A DNA stretch of 64,000 nt from IMG/VR virus record IMGVR_UViG_3300038393_000457, positions 19,809 through 83,808 of that record; one strand, written 5' to 3'. How positions within the stretch are numbered: position 1 is the first letter of the stretch; each line of letters opens with the position of its first letter. Source of the stretch: a virus. Lineage: Duplodnaviria > Caudoviricetes. The translations under genes and the position numbers were made by a program. Below are positions 17,647-50,826 of this stretch, one piece after another. The notes beneath the pieces were generated by a model. It searched no databases, was not told where the DNA came from, and worked only from the letters and a program-made list of their open reading frames with translations.

Positions 17647-17721
17647 ACGGGAGTAGCTCAGTGAAAGAGCGTCTGGCATCAGGTCAGAAGGTCGGTGGTT
17701 CAAGTCCATCCTTCCGTGCCA
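17647..17721 (+). tRNA. Degenerate tRNA with UCA at the anticodon position (probable pseudo-tRNA, Pro-like body)
   Basis: ACGGGAG/CTTCCGT-GCCA; TCTGG-CATCAGG-TCAGA; A33, and D loop lacks GG. Confidence 0.55.
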
Positions 17722-19629: not shown

Positions 19630-20256
19630 TTCTATACGATTTATAAGATAACTAATAAAATTAATGGAAAATATTACATTGGTAAACATCAAACTGAAAA
19701 TTTAGATGATGGTTATTTTGGTTCTGGTAAATTAATCAAAAAAGCCATTAAAAAATATGGCATAGAAAATTTTATTAAAGAAATCTTGTTCGTGTATGAT
19801 AATGAACAAGAAATGAATGAGAAAGAAAAGGAATTAGTAACCTTAAGAGAAGATAGTTATAACCTTTGTCCTGGTGGACAAGGTGGATTTGGTTATATTA
19901 ATAAAATAATATCGAAAGATGATAGATCAAAATATGGTAAAATTGGCGGCATCAAAATATCCACAGAAATTCAAACAAAAGGATTGTTCTTCAAAAATCT
20001 TACCAACAAATTTTCTAAAGGAAATCCATACCGATTTACTAAAGAAAATAATTACATGGCAGGTAAACAACATTCCTTAGAAGTGAAGAAAAAAATTGGT
20101 GAAGCGAATTCTTTACATCAGTCTGGTAAAAAGAATTCTCAATATGGTACTTGTTGGATATATCATCCACAACTAGGTAATAAGAAGATTGACAAAGAAG
20201 AACTAAATAAATATATTGAATTGGGCTATATTAAAGGCCGTCAAAAGTGGTATTAG
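19627..20256 (+). CDS. GIY-YIG homing endonuclease, Seg-like, with NUMOD3-like segment
   Basis: IYKITNKINGKYYIGKH...GYFGSG; GKQHSLEVKKKIGE; KNSQYGTCWI. Confidence 0.9.
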   Translation: MFYTIYKITNKINGKYYIGKHQTENLDDGYFGSGKLIKKAIKKYGIENFIKEILFVYDNEQEMNEKEKELVTLREDSYNLCPGGQGGFGYINKIISKDDRSKYGKIGGIKISTEIQTKGLFFKNLTNKFSKGNPYRFTKENNYMAGKQHSLEVKKKIGEANSLHQSGKKNSQYGTCWIYHPQLGNKKIDKEELNKYIELGYIKGRQKWY

Positions 20257-40470: not shown

Positions 40471-43087
40471 CGAAAATCTACTTTTTCAACACATAGAATA
40501 GACCGGCATCCTTGTACATCTTGTAGATGCCAACATTCAGTCGATTTTTTGTTTTAGTGGGAATAATAAAAGGCGTATAATGTTTATCATAACCAGTCCA
40601 AAAATCTCCCTTATGAGCCCACCTTCTATTATTGGCAGGCAAGGAATCATGTTCTGCCATTACAAGATCGGCATTTTGTTTCAAGATGTCACCTTCAGTG
40701 AAGATTTTAGACTTCAACATTTAAGCCATGCTCCCAACCTTCGGTGCCCCAATAATCCTCGGCTGCAAGTGGATCCAAAACTTCTTCCACAAGCATCTTG
40801 AGGAATTCCTTGCAGTTCTCAGGATTGTTCTCAAAGAACATCTTGAGACCATCGCAGATTTCATTGATGGTGTCAACCGCACCCTCGTCAGACATTTTCT
40901 TTATATTCATTTCACTATAAACCTAACCATGATTGCAACAAATAATTCTGTAAATACCACAGTCAACAAAAGATCAAATCCCATCAGGGCCTATATTTCT
41001 TGGTCGTCTTGAGGTAAGCAATTCCCAATGGAGTGATTTCGAGCTTAGTTTGACAAGGGCTACTAATTTTGGATGATTTAGAACTACCGTGGTTTTTAGG
41101 ATATATTTTAGGTGTTCTCGTCACCTTAGCATAACCTTTTTTGACCAATTCAAGATGACGTTTGGTCATTCTTGGTTGATATTTGTTATTGACATAACCT
41201 CGATCTTTATAAATTAAATCAAGGATATCATCCAATTCTTCTCGTCTGGTTTTCTTTGCTTGGACTGGAATACCGTATAAGGGAATAAGTTTTTTCATGG
41301 TTCAAAGAACAACCAATGTGTCACCATTAGGTCCAATTTTCTGGAGCTTTTCTTCAACTTTGATGGACAATTCAACCAACTGTTCACCGACTATAAGACC
41401 CGGATTATGTTTATAGATCTTTGGAATAGCGGTCTTGCCGGTTCCTGCCCGGAACTTACCAGTCGCCTTCTCCCGGACAAGGTAGACCTTGTCCGGCATG
41501 TTGACATAATTTGTCATGATTAATTGGCTTCATCCAAAGCAAGAGCCAAGATAATAGTACCGGTCATCATGATTTCCTCAAGACGAGCCCTGGTGTTCGG
41601 ATATTTCGTCCAATCACTCTGTTTGAGATGCGCGCCGACTGCACCAAGAAGTTGCGCAAGCATGGCAGCATTGATCTCGACAGTGGTGTTCTTCAGAACC
41701 TCATAGGTATTGGCGGCTTCAGGGTCTATCGCCAAGAATTCCTCGGTTGTCAGTTCATCTCTCTTCATTTGGTCTATCCTCATTAATTGGGAACAAAGGA
41801 TCGGAATTTATCACATTTGAGATGGCTTCCTTTAGGAAGGCTCGATCCGTATCGTTGAACCCATCGATTTTTTCTTCTGACATGCCGGCCACAACAATAC
41901 CAGCAGTCAACAGGATCGATAAGTCATCCGCATGAACCTTGACATAGGCATCAGTTGGCAGGCCAGTAGGATTGATTTGATCCAAATATGTTCGCATGGT
42001 TTCACGAGACATTGGAAGAGTCCTCGTAAGCATCGACGGCATCCTGCGCCAACGATTCGATGCGATTCACCGTGTCAATAAGTGACTGGGCGTTGTGACT
42101 GCCGTTCATGATTGCAACGTCGCAACCGCCCAACATGATCGAAACAGTGGCACAATCAACTTCGACCGTCATTGGATCACTTGTTGGCACCAAGCAAAGC
42201 GCCTCGACGTGCTTGATAACGTCGCTCACCAGTTCCGGATGCATACAGCCGAAGGAAATCGCTTCCCGGCAGCCCATCAGAAGCATGGAAATATCGTAAC
42301 GATCAATCTTGACCTTGATCTTTGAAACCCTCGCGGCGGCAGCCGCGATATGTGGCGGAGCCTGATCAAAAAGAGGAGACAACATGAAAACTTCCCATAA
42401 AATGTTTATTGACTACGACCACAATCTCACAGAAATTCAAATTGTCAAATCGACTTCATCTTATCAAAGGAGTCTCGCATTTCCTTGAACGTCTGTTCCA
42501 ATCCCTTGATCATCTTGTCGAATTCCGCTCTTTCCTCGTCTGTCATCTCACGACCAGAAGTCTTGACCGTTCGTTTGCCGTCGGCGTCTACTGTGTAGGT
42601 GACATTGGAAATAGTGGTCGTCCAAAGTGGAGAAGGGTCTGGGATATAGTCTACCCTCCAGTTTCCGACAAGAGCATTCCAGAAAGACTTGAAAAATTGA
42701 ATCATCTTGGTTTCCTTAAAATTTGGTGGAGCTAGTCAGAGTGCGTAACGTCCTGACACACCGGCAAATCCCCGGGCCCGATTAGCCGCTTTCGGGTTAG
42801 CCCCCTAACGTTGTGCCGTTCGATAAGTCAGACAATGAAAGCGCGCCGTTTCTTCTGGAATGATCACCCACTCACGACCACCACCTTGTGGATAAACCTT
42901 GACCGAGATTTCATGGCAAGTCGGGCACTCCAGGACATGGCCATAAGGGATATGCTCTCCCTCAGTCTCGTGGCCTTTGCTGCAAACATAGGTGACTTTC
43001 ATGTTTCCCATTCCGTCACAGGAAAGACATAATCGACCTGCATAGTCAGCCTGACGACCTGATACCTCTGTTTGTCCGTCATCATAC

Positions 43088-43168
43088 TCAGAATGCTCCG
43101 AGTTGCGCGGACAGGAAAACGAGTGTCGCTATGAACAATACAAACCAGATAATGTCAAGAAGTCTCAT
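43088..43168 (-). CDS. Membrane microprotein 4 (26 aa)
   Basis: MRLLDIIWFVLFIATLVFLSAQLGAF*; ATGA overlap with previous stop. Confidence 0.55.
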   Translation of the reverse strand: MRLLDIIWFVLFIATLVFLSAQLGAF

Positions 43169-43239
43169 CCCCAAACCCCGGAAACCGTCAGAATGAAAAC
43201 TTGGAAGAACAACACCACCAAGAGAAAGCGATAGAACAT
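43165..43239 (-). CDS. Membrane microprotein 3 (24 aa)
   Basis: MFYRFLLVVLFFQVFILTVSGVWG*; TGATG overlap. Confidence 0.55.
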   Translation of the reverse strand: MFYRFLLVVLFFQVFILTVSGVWG

Positions 43240-43337
43240 CACATCCACCGGAAGTCAAGAACCATGGCACAGAACACCACCGTCACACCAAGAGTGACAC
43301 TGGCAACCGCCAACCAGTCAAGCCAGAAACGAGTCAA
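43239..43337 (-). CDS. Membrane microprotein 2 (32 aa, TTG start)
   Basis: MTRFWLDWLAVASVTLGVTVVFCAMVLDFRWM*; TTGA overlap. Confidence 0.5.
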   Translation of the reverse strand: MTRFWLDWLAVASVTLGVTVVFCAMVLDFRWM

Positions 43338-43414
43338 CGTACCACAACTTTCAGGAGGCAGCACCCGGTCCAGAAAATGGCAAGACTGCCACCGAAGACG
43401 AGTAGATTAGTCAT
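43334..43414 (-). CDS. Membrane microprotein 1 (26 aa, probably leaderless)
   Basis: MTNLLVFGGSLAIFWTGCCLLKVVVR*; ATG 6 nt after TTGACG-N17-TAGTCT. Confidence 0.55.
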   Translation of the reverse strand: MTNLLVFGGSLAIFWTGCCLLKVVVR

Positions 43415-44558
43415 GCCACGAGACTAGCAGAACATGACTAGAGCGTCAAGGAGAAACCGGCAGCAAGCCCGAAATTGCATCTTCCTTGGCTTTGATCGCC
43501 GCTTCCACCTTGTCAATTGCCGCCCTAGTCAAAATCACGACATGTTCTCTTGTATCGACTTCGGAGATCGCCTGCTCCGATGCCGCAACCAACAACACCA
43601 ACGATTTGGCATCAATGGTGATTTCCACCTTCTCAAGGAAGTCAAGCATGTCAAGAAGTTTCATCAAAATACCTCAAAGTTAAGATGTCATAGCTCTAAC
43701 AGCGACCACAAAGAAAGTCAAGAAGAACGATATGCCTCAGAAACCTCCTGCTCAGTATGCGTCCTGTCGGGGTTCCTCCGGTAAATCGCCATGACTTGAT
43801 CGTGTGTCAAGGCGCCTTTCATGGCTCTTGCCCAAGTCAAGGAATCAGGGTAGGGTATAAAAGAAGTGTTCTTGGCGACTTCCACCGACGGCTTCTTGGC
43901 AGGAGCCAGCATCATCTCACGACAGCGGTTGACTTTCATCCGGTCCATGAAAGTCTCCTTTCGAGACTTGTCTACCTTGGAGGTTTCCCTAAAAGAAAGG
44001 GGAAGAAAGAAAAAGAGAAAAAGAAAGAAGGGGAAAGAAAGTGCGGAGCATAACTCCACGGAGTCCAAAAGTCAACCCCTTGTCAAGGCCTCCACGCAAA
44101 TAAATCTGTGGGTAACTTCCTATGCGTAGTATTCCTATGCGCAACAATGGCGCTCTATACGCAATTCTGGTCTCCAATCTTGCGCATAGGACTTCTACTT
44201 GAACAGTCCGCGCGCCTTCATGTCTGCCAACGTCCGCTGGGCGGTCTCCACTTGATCCGCCGTCATCGTCCACTCCGCGATGCTACCGTCCAAGACCAAC
44301 GCACCGTGGTGGCTCATGAACGTCTCCACGTAGTAGCGCGAAACGAATTGACCAAGCTCGGTGTGCGGAAAGCGCGCATCATAGAATTCCACCATGGACG
44401 CTTCCGCCGTCAGGGAGCCGCTCCGGCCGTAGGAATGCCCCCTCGGAACGACCCTCATGTTGAAATGCAGCATAGCAGGAAAGCTCCCTCTAGATGATCG
44501 CTCCATCATGAATGATCTTAGCAGCGCCGTCAAGAGGAAAACCACCGAAGAAAAAGCC

Positions 44559-44712
44559 TTGACCCGCTGTGGCAGATCACGTAAGATGCCTCCACAGGGT
44601 CGGACCGACCGGGGAAGACACCGACCATGGAAACACCGTCAACCAATAAACCAAATTGATTGAAAGAATTGGTTGACCAAAGACAAAAGAAAAGCGGCCC
44701 GAAAGCCGCTTT
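44559..44712 (+). ncRNA. Opposite-strand sRNA-like cassette 1
   Basis: TTGACC-N17-TAAGAT, GGGTCGGACCGACCGGGG at 44597, GC-rich hairpin at 44691-44712. Confidence 0.5.
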
Positions 44713-44912
44713 CCGCTTGACTTACTTACCAAACTCGACCCGACGCCTGGCTTCCGCCTTCCAGGCCCTGCCAAGGGCCCGACGCTGCTCCGCAGAAAGC
44801 GTGCTCTTGCGCGGATACATCCGCTCGTGCTTCGCCATTCGGCGCGCCTTGTTCCTCTGGGTGTTCGCAACACTCATTTTTCTCTCTCCTCTTACTGAAA
44901 ATTGATGGAAGC

Positions 44913-44941
44913 AGTCTAGCAGAGACCGCTCCCATCGTCAA
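44913..44941 (-). promoter_or_regulatory. Repeated early promoter cassette
   Basis: TTGACG-N17-TAGACT-GCTTCCATC. Confidence 0.7.
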
Positions 44942-44951
44942 GGAAAACCTC

Positions 44952-45380
44952 TCAGTTGAAGCGTTTCGCACATTCCGGCCCCAACCCGCTATCGATGCTG
45001 GCAGGAACCGTCAGCTTGCGGCCACAGCGGCCGCACTTGCCCTCGTGACGGACCTCCAAGGAGGGAGCGATCGCCCCTGCCATCGCGTGCTGGAGGAAGT
45101 ACCGGAAGGCGGCCACCGGCTTGCTGTCAGGAGCCATCTTGCTCTTGGCAGTCAGCACCACCTGGCCGTCCCGCACCAAGCCCAGATAGCTATAAGACCG
45201 CTCGTTGTCAGAGCCGGTCAGCAGCGACAGGAAGCGGATCAATTGATTGCCCTCGCGCGGCTGACGGACGCGATACGTGTAGCGTGCGCCCGTCTTGAGG
45301 GACGACAGGGTGAGAGTGGCATTGCCAGCGAGAGCATAGTCGCAAGCGGCTTTGCCGTTGCAGAACGTGTGGCAGTTCAT
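44952..45380 (-). CDS. DUF6011-like protein
   Basis: AGNA-LTL-S-KTG--YTYRV...Y-YLG...HEGKCGRCGRKLT-P-SI-SG-GPECA. Confidence 0.75.
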   Translation of the reverse strand: MNCHTFCNGKAACDYALAGNATLTLSSLKTGARYTYRVRQPREGNQLIRFLSLLTGSDNERSYSYLGLVRDGQVVLTAKSKMAPDSKPVAAFRYFLQHAMAGAIAPSLEVRHEGKCGRCGRKLTVPASIDSGLGPECAKRFN

Positions 45381-45479
45381 GGAAGACCTCTCCGAAATCA
45401 TGGAGAAAGCATACGTGAAAGAGCCACAAAGATCAAGGAGAAAAGATGCCAAAATCCAACTTTCTTGAAAGAATTGGAC

Positions 45480-45605
45480 TTGACCTGCCTCCGGTCTTCC
45501 TCTATGATGCCTTTCAAGGGGTCGGACCGACCAGGGCAGACACCAAGCCTGGGCGAATGCCAACTAGCACGTGAAACAAAAAAGAGGGGCCAATGACCCC
45601 TCTTT
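45480..45605 (+). ncRNA. Opposite-strand sRNA-like cassette 2
   Basis: TTGACC-N17-TATGAT, GGGTCGGACCGACCAGGG at 45519, bidirectional terminator AAGAGGGG/CCCCTCTT. Confidence 0.55.
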
Positions 45606-45843
45606 TGGTCGTCTCCTTTCTGGGATTTAGAGCTTTGTCAAGTCAGCAACCACCGATTCCGGATACACCTCGATCCGAGTCACAAATTTCCTGGCAACCG
45701 TCTCGTCCAGGCACGCCGCCGACATGAGATAGCAAACGGCAGAATTCGTGCCCCGGGTGCGGATGAAATGAGCAGTGGCAGCCACCACTTCGCGGGCTTC
45801 GGCAATCGTCATCTGCATTTGTCGTCTCCTTGATGTTGGAGAG

Positions 45844-45872
45844 AGCTTATCAGAAGCCCCCTCCAACGTCAA
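45844..45872 (-). promoter_or_regulatory. Repeated early promoter cassette
   Basis: TTGACG-N17-TAAGCT. Confidence 0.65.
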
Positions 45873-46204
45873 AAGAAAAATGGAAATCCTACCTAGCGGT
45901 AGGACCCCTCATAGACGCCGCGAGAAGCGACCAGATTGCGAGCCCGCTCCAAAGCGTCACCATCGTACCGACTAAAGCCGGTGAGCAGCGTGAAGCCGTT
46001 GAAACCGTTGTCCTGGTGGACATAGATATACAGCCCATACATGTTGGACTCGGTACGGAACGTGGAGTGATGGAACGAGCCGTCAGCCAGGCAATCCTGG
46101 AGCATCTTGGTACGCACCGCCAGGGAGATCGCTTGACCCAGCATTTCGAAGGGAGCCAGCGGAATGTTCAGTCGCATGTCAGTCTCCGTCTTGATGATGG
46201 AAGC

Positions 46205-46233
46205 AGTCTACATGAGACTGCCTCCAACGTCAA
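46205..46233 (-). promoter_or_regulatory. Repeated early promoter cassette with internal perfect palindrome
   Basis: TTGACG-N17-TAGACT; GCAGTCT-ACATG-AGACTGC at 46203-46221. Confidence 0.75.
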
Positions 46234-46505
46234 TAAGAAAATGGATTTACTTGCGCCCAGCTTTCTCCAGAATCTCCTTGACAGACTCGCGCATAGCGAG
46301 AGCGACCTTGGCCTTGAGCGGATCACCGTGTCGGTGCTCGCTCCAATACACCTCATTGTGACCAGCCCGGAGACCCTCCAGGTAATCGAACCAAGCGAAA
46401 GTATGCGGGGTGTAGAAGTCCAGATTGGAGGGGAGACCCGCCTCGGCATGATACTTGCCGGCACGATATGCATCAGACATTTGCATCTCCTTGGATGATG
46501 GAAGC

Positions 46506-46534
46506 AGTCTACTCGCTCCCATCATCCAAGTCAA
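46506..46534 (-). promoter_or_regulatory. Repeated early promoter cassette
   Basis: TTGACT-N17-TAGACT-GCTTCCATCATC. Confidence 0.75.
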
Positions 46535-47104
46535 CGGAAAAATGGATGTTCAATCGTTGAATATCGTCACTCGCATACGATCCACCCCCTGTCCCAAGAG
46601 CGGGCGATAGCGCCAGGCCTTGATCTCTCCGTCTTGCTTGTCAGTCTCACAGTGAACGAAAACGATCTCCCTGCCCGTCTTGTGCGACTTGATGATAAAG
46701 CCACAATCAATCGCGTCATTGAACACACTGCCAGCGAGTGTCTTGCCGTTGAAGTCAGAGGCCTCGGCACAGAACACTTGATCCCCGCTATAGAAGCGGA
46801 AACACTGTGACGAATGCACTGGCAGATTGCGCCGATTGACACTCGGATGATTGATATGACAAAGCATTTAGACCCCCTACCAACCGAAAACCCACATGAA
46901 CCCTCGGAAGATGACAGGATTAGCATCCTTGTCAACGAAGACCGCCGTAACACGACCGTCTGCTGTATAGACGAGAATATGAGCAAGGTCCTGGAACCCA
47001 TACTTTTCAAGCGCCTTGTCCAGATTGGCAACGGTCTTGAAGGTCTTGGTCCCTTCTTTCACTTCGAGGCACTTGCTCATGCGTCAGTCTCCTTTGATGA
47101 TTGA

Positions 47105-47133
47105 AGTCTATCAAAGATCATAGATCATTGCAA
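47105..47133 (-). promoter_or_regulatory. Repeated early promoter cassette
   Basis: TTGCAA-N17-TAGACT. Confidence 0.6.
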
Positions 47134-47166
47134 CAAGAAAATGGTCCATCCAATCCAATTTTTTTC

Positions 47167-47310
47167 TTGTAATTGGAATTGGAATCCGATATACTGGACT
47201 CATGGGTCGGACCGGACCAGGAAGGCCACCCCACCTGGAACAATGGTTAATCGTCAACCACCTATTATTAATTAACCACGAGCACAAAAAAGGAGGCCTT
47301 GACAGGCCTC
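47167..47310 (+). ncRNA. Opposite-strand sRNA-like cassette 3
   Basis: TTGTAA-N17-TATACT, GGGTCGGACCGGACCAGG at 47204, GGTTAAT..ATTAACC stem, hairpin GGAGGCC/GGCCTCC. Confidence 0.55.
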
Positions 47311-47739
47311 CAATTCTATGTCTAGCGATACGTTGATCTAGCGATACGTACGATCAATGAAGAAAAGACACTCTTGCAAGTTAGCGAATGTCATAGAGAT
47401 ATATTCATCACATTCCGGAGCTTCCCCTACTGTCACATCATACGCGCTATCAACGTCGTAATAGACGCGCAAACAGACTGGATTACACTCAGTCTCGTCT
47501 GTCGGAGACATCAAGAAGTCATCGTTATGCAGTGACGAGTCGCGCGACGTGCTTCCCCCAATAGAGATGATAGTAGACGGATTGACGCGCTTCCAGAAAG
47601 CGTCCCCCCAAATCCCTCCAGCTTTCACAAAGCAGCGTGAAGTCATTTCGTTCTGAACAGTCATCGTTGTCTCCGTTCTGATAAAGACATCATAACAGAA
47701 TCGGAGAACAATGCAAGAGAAAAGATTCCAATTTTTTTG

Positions 47740-47895
47740 TTGTAATTGGATCCAATTTAGTCTATACTCCTGGACATTGGGTCGGATCGGACCAGGACCG
47801 CCACCCACCCTGGTCGTTTGGTTAATTGGTTGATTTGGTATTATTAATTAACCTACCAACAAAAAGAAACCTAGGATGGTTTCCTTTCCTAGGTT
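47740..47895 (+). ncRNA. Opposite-strand sRNA-like cassette 4 (close paralogue of cassette 3)
   Basis: TTGTAA-N17-TATACT, GGGTCGGATCGGACCAGG at 47779, same GGTTAAT..TTATTAATTAACC element, hairpin CCTAGGA/TCCTAGG. Confidence 0.55.
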
Positions 47896-48553
47896 CCCTC
47901 AGAGTGACTGGCCTAAACCCAGTCCGTATTAACTCTTGCGCATGGACCCCGGCATACGATATGCGGCAGGGTTCTTCGAATTCTTCATTGTCACCGACAT
48001 TGCATTGCGTCGATTGTTGAGCTTCCTTTGCTGCTTCTTGAGTATCTTCACTTATCTACTGCCCCTCTATTGAGTGTGGCAGCATCATACCACACTCAAG
48101 TATGAGCGTCAAGGCTTTTTGAAATGATAGATGCCGCGATTGATAAGCCAACGCTTGCGGACCCCCTGACTATGAAACCGCTTCATGTGCTGGCCCAGCA
48201 TGTCTTCCATGAATTCAAGCTCAAGCTTGATAGCTAACAGAAGATTATCGAACATGGCATTCTCCGTATCTGATTTAGAGAGTATCGTTTCGAGTGCAAC
48301 GAGAATATCGCATATGCTAGAAGATAGATCAAGGACTATTTCCAATTAAAAAGTATGTTTTGGACCCCTCCTAGATACTTTTTTTGTCAAATCTTTTCCA
48401 ACTATTTCCACTAAGTCCTTGATTTATAAGGAAACTTGGAAAATATATGGTTTTGACCCCCTTTCCAATCTTTTTGAAAGAATTGGCTTGACTTCCAATA
48501 AAAGAGAGGGGGATGAGCCCCCTCTTTGCTACTCGTTGGAGAAGAGGGGCCGC

Positions 48554-48967
48554 TTACGCGGCCGCCTCCTGCTGGGCCTCGGCTTCCTTGGCGGCCTGCT
48601 CGGCGCGCACGACCAGCTTGCTCTCCCACTTGCCGATCACGTTCGTCGGCTTGACGAGATGCCCCTTGGCGTTGCGGAAGCGCTCGGCGGTCGTGCCCTT
48701 GAAGATATAGCCGACAACCTTGCGATCCTTCTTGACAGCAACGAGCGGGAACGACTCGGGCGCGTTGGGGTCAAGCGACTCACGGGTCGTGTAGTAGATG
48801 AAGCCGTTGACCCACTTCTTGCCAGTCGCCTTCTGCAGGGCAGCAATGTCAAACAGCTTGCCCTTGTTATTCGAGAACAGATCACGGAGCAGGGCGACCA
48901 TGCCCGGGGTGCTCTTGGTGATCGCATAGCTCTGCGGCAGCTTGGTAGCAACATTCTTCTTAGCCAT
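48554..48967 (-). CDS. Basic hypothetical protein, paralogue B
   Basis: LQKATGKKWV and VAVKKDRKVVGY; GGAG RBS; followed by a terminator hairpin. Confidence 0.75.
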   Translation of the reverse strand: MAKKNVATKLPQSYAITKSTPGMVALLRDLFSNNKGKLFDIAALQKATGKKWVNGFIYYTTRESLDPNAPESFPLVAVKKDRKVVGYIFKGTTAERFRNAKGHLVKPTNVIGKWESKLVVRAEQAAKEAEAQQEAAA

Positions 48968-50826
48968 TGTCAGTCTCCTTTGTCAGTCTAGAGCGGTAGA
49001 GCGGAATGCTCTTCCTATTGCTCTCTTGATGTTTTGAGTATAGTGGAAGCTCCAGTCCATGTCTAACAAAATCGGAGAAATATTCTTGCTTTCTGGAGTA
49101 GTGGATTTGACAGGGTATATGTTAGAAAAAGACCAAAAAGTGTCAAATATTCTCCAACAATATCAATAGTTTAGGATCCCCTATAAATTGGATATTAAAA
49201 TAAACGTTGACTTATCCAATTTTGTGTAGGGAGATGCGGTTTTCACTAAAATGCCAATAGGATCCATGTTTCAGGACCCTATTGGCTTGTCAAGGAGTTT
49301 AATATCTAATTGTCGTTGGATGCGGCCTTGACTAGAGCGTCAATCCAATCCAACCATTCTTGTTCGGTCAATTGGAGTCTCCTTCATTCTTAAAGGTGAA
49401 CAACCACCCATTGATTGTCACACATTCTTGCAAATCACAATCCCATGCCAAGAAACGATCATTAAGATCGGTATCAAACTTGACAAACAAATAGCGTTCA
49501 CCGTGCCATTGGTCGTTGTCATTGGTAGATGAATGAAACCCAATAGCTACCACCAAACGATTGTAGCCTAGTTCCGTTGCTTCGTTGTCGCATGTCGGCT
49601 TCATTCGTTGTTCTCCTTAGTGTGGGAGAATGATATCAGAGTGTGGATGTATGTTCAAGGATTTTATATGTAATTTCCTGTCTTTTTTAGAACGTGCACC
49701 CCTTCTTTTGGAACAGTTACTTTTAGAGAATGAGTTTCCAGGACTTAAAAAATGATCTTCAATAATGCCAGTATGCAAGCCAATATTACCAGGAATGCAA
49801 GGAATATTCCGATTTTCAACAATTGTAAGTGTTTCTGCATTGCTGTTCACCAAAAATACATAGTGCTGGCCATCATGTATCAAGCAAGGAGTTGTTTGCA
49901 AGCGTCATCGTGTAGAAAATGCAGAATTCATCCAATCTTTCCACATAGGGTGTTGCATCCAATGTGAAGAATTTACCATGATTCTTTTCAATCATTTCAG
50001 CATACTTCACGTTGTCTGAAGTGTATTTCCACTTTTGACGGAATTGTGTCATGCTGATTGACAAAGTGGCGGAATTCATGTCCAGGCCTCCATGAATTGG
50101 GTATAGCTCTCGGGATTCTGGAATCCCATCGCATCACGGAAGCCTTCGCGGTCATTGGAGTAATTGTAACGCTCCAACTCATCCTTGGACTTCTGATACC
50201 AGACTTCCAGAACGATAGCGATCCAAAGCTCGGTCATCTGTTCTCTCCTTGATGTTGAATAGACTATATCAAGGATTTTAGACTTTGTACAGGACTATTT
50301 TTGTCTTTTTATTCTTGATTTAGTTTTTGGATTGTGATCGGATCCAAATCTTCTTCGTTTGTCAAAGATTCCAAAAAATCAATTGACTCCTGGATTTCCT
50401 CGTCATTCTGTTTCAATTGTGCGCGGGTCATACCATCATAGAGTGATGAATGATTCTGATAAAGAGTTTGGAGCAATCGCAATTGGCCGATCGCTGTTTC
50501 CAACTTGTCAACCTTGTTTGACATTGTTATCTCCACATCTTAGCTAAAAGCGCCGCGCGCAATCGTTGTTTCGCATACATCATGATCCGTTATAATATGG
50601 CCCATGAATTCATGAGTCGATACATAACGGATTTCCACTAATTCATTTGCGCTGTTATACGTGCGCAGAATATCGGTCACAATGAAAAGACGCGGATGTT
50701 TTCCTTGCGTCATATATTGCTGACCAATTTCGAATCTCGGTGTGGTCATTTCTGGCACCCTCTCTTTGTTGTCTCGGAGAGAATATCAAATATCTTGTAT
50801 CTTTGCAACACTTATTTGTCCAAATT

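Follow-up and report, generated by a model that had tools for sequence, protein, structure and literature searches.

Four short cassettes on the plus strand of a phage genome fragment form a real, non-random and non-coding repeat family that is coupled to promoters. Most likely they represent a new family of phage small RNAs (sRNAs), whose expression and function we infer from the sequence. The cassettes lie between positions 44559 and 47895 of a 64,000-nt stretch (the window, to which all coordinates below refer), taken from positions 19,809 to 83,808 of the IMG/VR virus record IMGVR_UViG_3300038393_000457 (Duplodnaviria; Caudoviricetes). Each consists of a sigma70-type promoter, a conserved GC-rich 5' module, a body and an end hairpin. 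The more specific proposal, that these are sibling early sRNAs with the conserved 5' module as their working part, has in our estimate about even chances of being correct.

All four promoters were recovered by a promoter scan where the preliminary description of the window had placed them, each with a spacer of exactly 17 nt and 9-10 of the 12 consensus bases (hexamers in Table 1). The 18-nt GC-rich motif that had been reported to follow them within about 10 nt was found as well: there are four matches against 0.39 expected, all on the plus strand and 8-10 nt downstream of the -10 hexamer, and no further copies elsewhere in the 83.8-kb record. Alignment of the four copies shows that conservation reaches well beyond these 18 nt and covers about 37 nt, GGGTCGGAYCG(G)ACCRGGnnnGnCACCnnnCnTGG, with three variable bases before G-N-CACC and three or four before C-N-TGG. 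Every cassette is located back to back with a minus-strand early promoter, as had been noted; the -35 elements of the latter were located for all four (at about 44533, 45437, 47133 and 47716). The distance from the motif to this divergent promoter varies from 63 to 82 nt while the gap to the plus-strand -10 hexamer is fixed, which links the motif to the start site on the plus strand.

Chance similarity or an assembly artefact, for which only the low copy number speaks, can practically be dismissed: four matches were reached in none of 100 shuffles, a covariance model built on the module gives 55-58 bits for each copy, and an independent metagenome contig contains the same cassettes, as do at least eight DNA runs of separate studies. 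Protein coding is ruled out on either strand, since the four copies share no open reading frame (ORF) and a 1-nt indel separates copies 1 and 2 from copies 3 and 4 within the most conserved block. Short ORFs of 5-10 codons in the bodies are not conserved, and small peptides were rejected as products. Thus, the earlier observation of 80-110 nt free of any real ORF holds as far as a conserved ORF is concerned, but not for the length of copy 2, whose body is merely 24 nt long.

In the consensus fold the module forms a CCAGG/CCUGG hairpin with a 12-nt loop, which carries the conserved G-N-CACC and is predicted to be unpaired. This fold may face competition from a small hairpin of the 5' GGUC...GACC segment, which in copy 1 is predicted to pair with the downstream CCGACC instead. 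The palindrome GGTCGG-A-CCGACC, ascribed earlier to two copies, is present in copies 1 and 2, and across the family the spacing of the GGTC and GACC halves (GGTC-N5/N6-GACC) differs between copies. Copies 3 and 4 do share, in their bodies, the stem GGTTAAT/ATTAACC that had likewise been reported. G-U pairs, available to plus-strand RNA only, are found in the hairpin of copy 1 and in the body stem of copy 4.

Retention of the cassettes in a second strain provides further evidence. A search of 5.8 billion proteins gave just one further cluster for the gene product from between cassettes 3 and 4, located on L114, a 2,991-bp soil metagenome contig that is 88-94% identical to the window. L114 retains cassettes 2, 3 and 4 with all promoter hexamers unchanged. 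Modules and bodies differ at only 7 of 245 nt (2.9%) between the two strains, compared with 7.2% for the coding sequence and 36-40% for the spacers immediately flanking the cassettes; copies 3 and 4 have bodies that are 100% conserved. The L114 changes give the copy 2 hairpin one more base pair; in the terminators they either compensate for one another or extend the stem. In the copy 3 terminator (47292-47311) the loop is inverted, reading TTGACA in the window and TGTCAA in L114. Two early genes, g4 (45627-45818) and g8 (46877-47080), are absent from L114, although the adjacent cassettes are retained. The gain-loss stretches compared for these genes (45621-45893 and 46868-47104) have their breakpoints within repeated leader and promoter sequences. 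Gene divergence between the two strains is mosaic, from 1.3% in g6 to 19% in g5.

The promoter regions contain one more conserved element. A TCCAAT-N12-ATTGGA palindrome overlaps or abuts the -35 hexamer in copies 2, 3 and 4, and its half-sites are also present inside the copy 1 body and in a remnant (48462-48486) that lacks the motif. Moreover, copies 1, 3 and 4 contain fragments of promoter DNA (ATTGGTTGAC) in their bodies, in either orientation. As the bodies share pieces with the promoter region, the family has expanded through the duplication and rearrangement of common material. The loops of the body hairpins of copies 3 (47250-47262) and 4 (47826-47838) carry GTCAACCA and its complement TGGTTGA.

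These palindromes and recycled pieces would suit a DNA-level regulatory or recombination module, in which TCCAAT/ATTGGA at -35 and GGTC..GACC at +2 to +15 serve as protein-binding sites. Such a module could control or insulate the neighbouring early promoters, or provide homology patches for cassette shuffling, the plus-strand transcript being incidental. We consider this explanation unlikely, although both conserved elements are palindromic or nearly so, the first of them occurs at three of the four promoters, and the gene content beside the cassettes differs between the strains (g4 and g8), as it does for the early promoter plus stem-loop elements (PeSLs) of T4-type phages (PMC2839356, PMC4122927). 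The half-sites of the +2 element shift by 1 bp between copies, a change better tolerated by an RNA loop than by a dimeric DNA-binding protein. Conservation continues for about 37 nt into the transcribed region and includes a hairpin with a conserved loop, while the position of the motif is fixed relative to the plus-strand -10 hexamer and not to the minus-strand promoter. The bodies, not needed by such a model, are nevertheless fully conserved in copies 3 and 4. We therefore favour recognition at the RNA level over the DNA level because of the shifted half-site spacing, the G-U pairs available to the plus-strand RNA only and the conservation of the copy 3 and 4 bodies.

The end hairpins require a more cautious description than the one given at first. 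Terminator-like hairpins do close the cassettes, but they serve mainly the opposite strand: the 10 nt following the stem contain 8, 5, 7 and 8 T on the minus strand and 4, 3, 5 and 3 T on the plus strand, and the scan that gave the promoters lists these hairpins as minus-strand terminators too. Given the T runs on the minus strand, they are primarily terminators of the convergent early genes and at best weakly bidirectional, with the bidirectional shape best in copy 2 and worst in copies 3 and 4. For the plus-strand RNA, the end hairpin is a shared hairpin that comes after an A tract and is followed by a weak tail.

If plus-strand transcripts pass these weak terminators, they could act as cis-antisense leaders, antisense to the convergent early genes or paired with read-through mRNAs, shutting off or processing early messages, with the 5' module as a stabilising or anti-termination leader. 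Early antisense transcription has been documented in other virulent phages (PMC4933390). With 3-5 T in 10 nt the T tails are poor, those of copies 3 and 4 in particular, which agrees with this possibility, and the strongest partners predicted in the record are the opposite strands of the cassettes themselves. We still find it improbable: every cassette ends in a stable GC-rich hairpin, followed in copies 1 and 2 by partial U tails, the use of one and the same 37-nt leader for four different downstream genes is left unexplained, and the cassette upstream of g4 is kept in L114 despite the absence of that gene.

A role in replication can also be considered for a T4-like phage. Minimal T4 oriF and oriG comprise about 100 bp in which a promoter precedes an AT-rich unwinding element, and oriE requires an early promoter (PMC3016281). 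By analogy, the early promoters of the cassettes might fire into an AT-rich stretch, where the hybridised RNA would prime the leading strand. The cassettes resemble oriF and oriG in their phage type and their size (PMC3016281), and three of them also in layout: in copies 1, 3 and 4 a body of 65-74% AT with a long hairpin directly follows the GC-rich start. This AT content is high for the GC-richer block in which the cassettes reside but unremarkable compared with the whole genome, and the short body of copy 2 has only 58% AT. The RNA start lacks the excess of G over C that would favour a hybrid (G/C counts of 14/10, 15/12, 13/13 and 12/15). The T4 origins have no common sequence motif, R-loop formation there being sequence-independent (PMC3016281), so the conserved GC-rich 37-nt module would remain unexplained. 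oriF and oriG use MotA-dependent middle promoters, while those of the cassettes are of the sigma70 type, and a cluster of four origins in a 3.3-kb segment, 6-10 kb away from the strand switch (at about 38 kb of the window), would be unlike T4. Overall, R-loop origins appear quite unlikely.

Returning to sibling sRNAs, the features described above allow a scheme to be proposed, in which transcription, the RNA ends and the whole mechanism are predicted. The cassettes would be paralogous genes for non-coding RNAs of about 95-125 nt, transcribed early by the host RNA polymerase from sigma70-type promoters that point away from the neighbouring early-gene promoters. The 5' end of the RNA would lie 1-4 nt before the conserved module, and the 3' end would be formed at the hairpin common to the cassette and the convergent early gene, or result from trimming to that point. 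The 5' module of about 40 nt would be the functional part, i.e., the 5'-terminal GGGUCGGAYCG(G)ACC followed by the CCAGG/CCUGG hairpin displaying G-CACC; the 5' end and the hairpin loop are the candidate contacts with a partner, and the AT-rich body and the 3' hairpin vary between copies. The presence of four strongly promoted copies suggests that dosage matters, which fits titration of a host or phage factor, or pairing via the 5' end or the loop.

Chromosomal sibling sRNAs such as OmrA/OmrB and Qrr1-4 combine a conserved 5' domain with a variable body; they are Hfq-dependent, end in terminators with long U tails and have mapped targets. The cassettes resemble them in being several paralogues of about 100 nt with their own promoters and with the extreme 5' end most conserved. 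They differ in belonging to a virulent-type phage, in having weak U tails and in borrowing the 3' hairpin from a convergent gene. Judged by sequence features, each cassette appears to have its own promoter and a non-coding unit within the range of about 50-300 nt expected of Hfq-type sRNAs; a rho-independent terminator with a long U tail is absent, the plus-strand tails containing just 4, 3, 5 and 3 T in 10 nt. The earlier proposal of an sRNA family is in part supported, by the promoter-module spacing, the non-coding nature, the variable body, the end hairpin and the retention in a second strain, but not by the plus-strand termination signals.

Abundant intergenic RNAs of roughly 100 nt are a known product of virulent phages, examples being sRNA1 and sRNA2 of PAK_P3 (PMC4933390). 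Together with the band C and D RNAs of T4, these are comparable to the cassettes as non-coding intergenic units of that size in a lytic myovirus (PMC4933390). The PAK_P3 RNAs, however, are late and located in or near the tRNA region, whereas the cassettes are of an early type, lie opposite early genes, number four paralogues and have no sequence similarity to them.

We also considered an early high-dosage decoy family, in which the 5' module would mimic a host RNA or another nucleic-acid ligand and soak up an RNA-binding defence protein or a global regulator. This version is very doubtful; if true, it would be a form of RNA-based counter-defence so far undescribed for T4-like phages. RNA anti-CRISPRs, reportedly described by Camara-Wilpert et al. 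in 2023, are said to be solitary CRISPR repeat units carried by phages. The cassettes are similar to them in having a promoter directly before a conserved hairpin RNA of about 30-40 nt, in being multi-copy and in residing among phage accessory genes, but the module has no recognisable repeat features. No CRISPR array or other repeated locus with the motif was found in one genome for each of 185,579 bacterial and archaeal species, in a search by exact pattern which a diverged repeat would escape. A CsrA/RsmA sponge, in which many GGA motifs would be displayed by hairpin loops, does not match: the RNAs contain 3, 1, 5 and 4 GGA triplets, mostly in the 5' segment or in stems rather than in loops. 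Likenesses to signal recognition particle RNA, 5S rRNA, the sarcin-ricin loop and the tRNA T-arm were seen by eye, extend over 7-8 nt only and were taken as chance.

Several observations weigh against the sibling sRNA interpretation. There is no covariation in the conserved hairpin, because both of its arms are invariant, and invariant pairs are uninformative either way. Folding z-scores are modest (-2.9, -1.0, -2.2 and -1.1 for copies 1-4), the plus-strand termination signals are weak, above all in copies 3 and 4, and the bodies partly resemble recycled promoter and palindrome DNA, which a DNA-level element would fit too. RNAduplex found no trans target on either strand of the 83.8-kb record, so that of the conserved 5' seed with a variable body postulated earlier, the conserved module is confirmed, with no target for it found within the phage record. 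The strongest complements are the opposite strands of the cassettes, and the next sites are GC-rich and not common to the copies. No RNA contig covers the cassettes in two rhizosphere metatranscriptome runs, whose sparse contigs are uninformative either way. Metatranscriptome contigs do match positions 46675-47070 (g7 and g8) exactly, at a depth of 2-3.6, which hints at phage activity in those soils, with DNA carry-over as a possible source.

Finally, the family is known from a single phage lineage, and the comparative support therefore comes from two strains only. The motif search in relatives that had been recommended gave cassettes 2-4 of L114 and no copy outside this lineage. A scan of the IMG/VR database with the 17-18-nt motif returned 42 single matches, roughly as many as chance would give, each in a high-GC contig that lacks the downstream features; a looser motif returned 25 matches, all weak by the covariance model. 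Among the JGI metagenome contigs L114 was the sole real match, and the genomes of the 185,579 species gave five single chance matches within coding sequences of high-GC genomes. No module RNA was found at the loci homologous to g3, a gene neighbouring the cassettes, in ten contigs, nor in the five of their whole records that were searched; one weak module match in these contigs falls in coding sequence. With gathering thresholds, Rfam 15 gives only tRNA matches in the window, and a permissive Rfam search of 44300-48200 gave at best 24 bits against a threshold of 56, with E above 1. ARAGORN found no tRNA or tmRNA in the cassette region.

Table 1. Features of the four plus-strand cassettes, the cassette remnant and the minus-strand early promoter repeats (window coordinates; a dot marks hairpins not assigned to one strand).
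Feature	Position	Strand	Details
Cassette 1 promoter	44559..44587	+	TTGACC-17-TAAGAT; promoter scan; divergent from minus-strand promoter 44533-44505
Cassette 1 5' module	44597..44633	+	GGGTCGGACCGACCGGGG..GACACC..CATGG; motif scan, alignment, covariance model (55 bits)
Cassette 1 body hairpin	44638..44677	+	GTCAACCAAT...ATTGGTTGAC; holds a CCAA-N-AATTGG copy of the palindrome and a TTGACC -35-like hexamer
Cassette 1 end hairpin	44689..44714	.	Shared with convergent gene 44722-44877 (minus strand); good minus-strand terminator, weak on plus strand
Cassette 2 palindrome and promoter	45455..45508	+	TCCAAC...ATTGGA; TTGACC-17-TATGAT from 45480; identical in L114
Cassette 2 5' module	45519..45555	+	58.5 bits; L114 changes keep or lengthen the CCAGG/CCTGG stem
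Cassette 2 hairpin	45580..45606	.	A-tract/T-tract, bidirectional terminator shape
Cassette 3 palindrome overlapping promoter	47154..47195	+	TCCAAT-N12-ATTGGA; TTGTAA-17-TATACT from 47167; repeat family D20
Cassette 3 5' module	47204..47240	+	58.4 bits; identical in L114
Cassette 3 AT-rich hairpin	47243..47276	+	GGTTAAT...ATTAACC; folding
Cassette 3 end hairpin	47292..47311	.	Terminator of gene 47338-47664 (minus strand); loop inverted in L114
Cassette 4 palindrome and promoter	47727..47768	+	TTGTAA-17-TATACT from 47740; promoter scan, repeat families
Cassette 4 5' module	47779..47815	+	GGGTCGGATCGGACCAGG...; 58.1 bits
Cassette 4 AT-rich hairpin	47820..47853	+	11-bp stem needs two G-U pairs, plus-strand RNA only
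Cassette 4 end hairpin	47868..47893	.	Minus-strand terminator with TTTCTTTTTG tail on minus strand; L114 changes compensatory
Cassette remnant	48462..48525	+	TTGAAAGAATTGG palindrome (48462-48486) and TTGACT, joined directly to a terminator hairpin; no -10, no GGGTCGG module
Minus-strand early promoter repeats	44903-44941, 45829-45884, 46190-46245, 46491-46546, 47099-47133	-	TTGACG-17-TAGACT followed by GCTTCCATCATCAAGGAGA leader

The cassettes lie within a region of small minus-strand genes, mostly orphans, that extends from about 38 to 60 kb of the window. The minus-strand early genes each have their own sigma70-type promoter and leader, TTGACG-17-TAGACT-GCTTCCATCATCAAGGAGA (repeat families D1 and D2), and in some of these units an inverted repeat spans the promoter, as in the hairpin over the promoter at 44936-44904. 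A layout of one gene with one promoter plus a stem-loop is known from the hyperplastic regions of T4-type genomes (PMC2839356, PMC4122927). The minus-strand units have the properties of PeSLs: an early promoter with a stem-loop, variable ORFs, and ORF gain and loss between close relatives. The plus-strand cassettes share this setting of small early ORFs that have their own promoter and stem-loop and are gained or lost between close strains, but they are not PeSLs themselves. In a PeSL the promoter and the stem-loop are on the same strand, while a cassette is an extra opposite-strand unit between the stem-loop and the next early promoter.

All four cassettes are located within the block 42000-49000, which has a GC content of 49-55% compared with about 41% overall and may have been acquired from a GC-richer source. 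The g3 gene (44952-45380, minus strand) codes for a member of phrog_20259 with a C-terminal DUF6011 zinc-ribbon-like domain (PF19474, E = 1e-14), and its homologues (41-53% identity) are found in ten otherwise unrelated viral contigs. Another gene neighbouring the cassettes codes for a 359-aa product with no relative found in IMG/VR.

The source record is about 47% complete according to the CheckV estimate and encodes a gp61-type primase, ribonucleotide reductase, NAMPT and sugar-nucleotide enzymes. As the primase shares no more than 38% identity with its counterparts in T4-like cyanophages, and no more than 37% with any sequence in IMG/VR, the phage is a distant T4-like myovirus without a close sequenced relative. 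Its DNA is present in soil and rhizosphere metagenomes of at least eight studies, the lineage occurring in ten DNA runs. Between 11 and 35 kb the window carries 27 plus-strand tRNA genes, as called by ARAGORN. One of them, a 75-nt tRNA with the anticodon UCA (17647-17721), was labelled SeC by the program; in a phage, it is more likely an opal-reading suppressor-type tRNA.

Known sRNAs of virulent phages are few, and almost none of them has a known function. Should the cassettes prove to be R-loop origins or operator modules instead, they would still constitute a conserved cis element in a lineage without cultured relatives. As sRNA genes, a four-copy family with strong early promoters would offer a clean and testable case of host takeover or self-regulation through RNA in a T4-like soil phage that has not been cultured, and it would mean that non-coding cargo is present in the shuffled "ORFan" regions of T4-type genomes.

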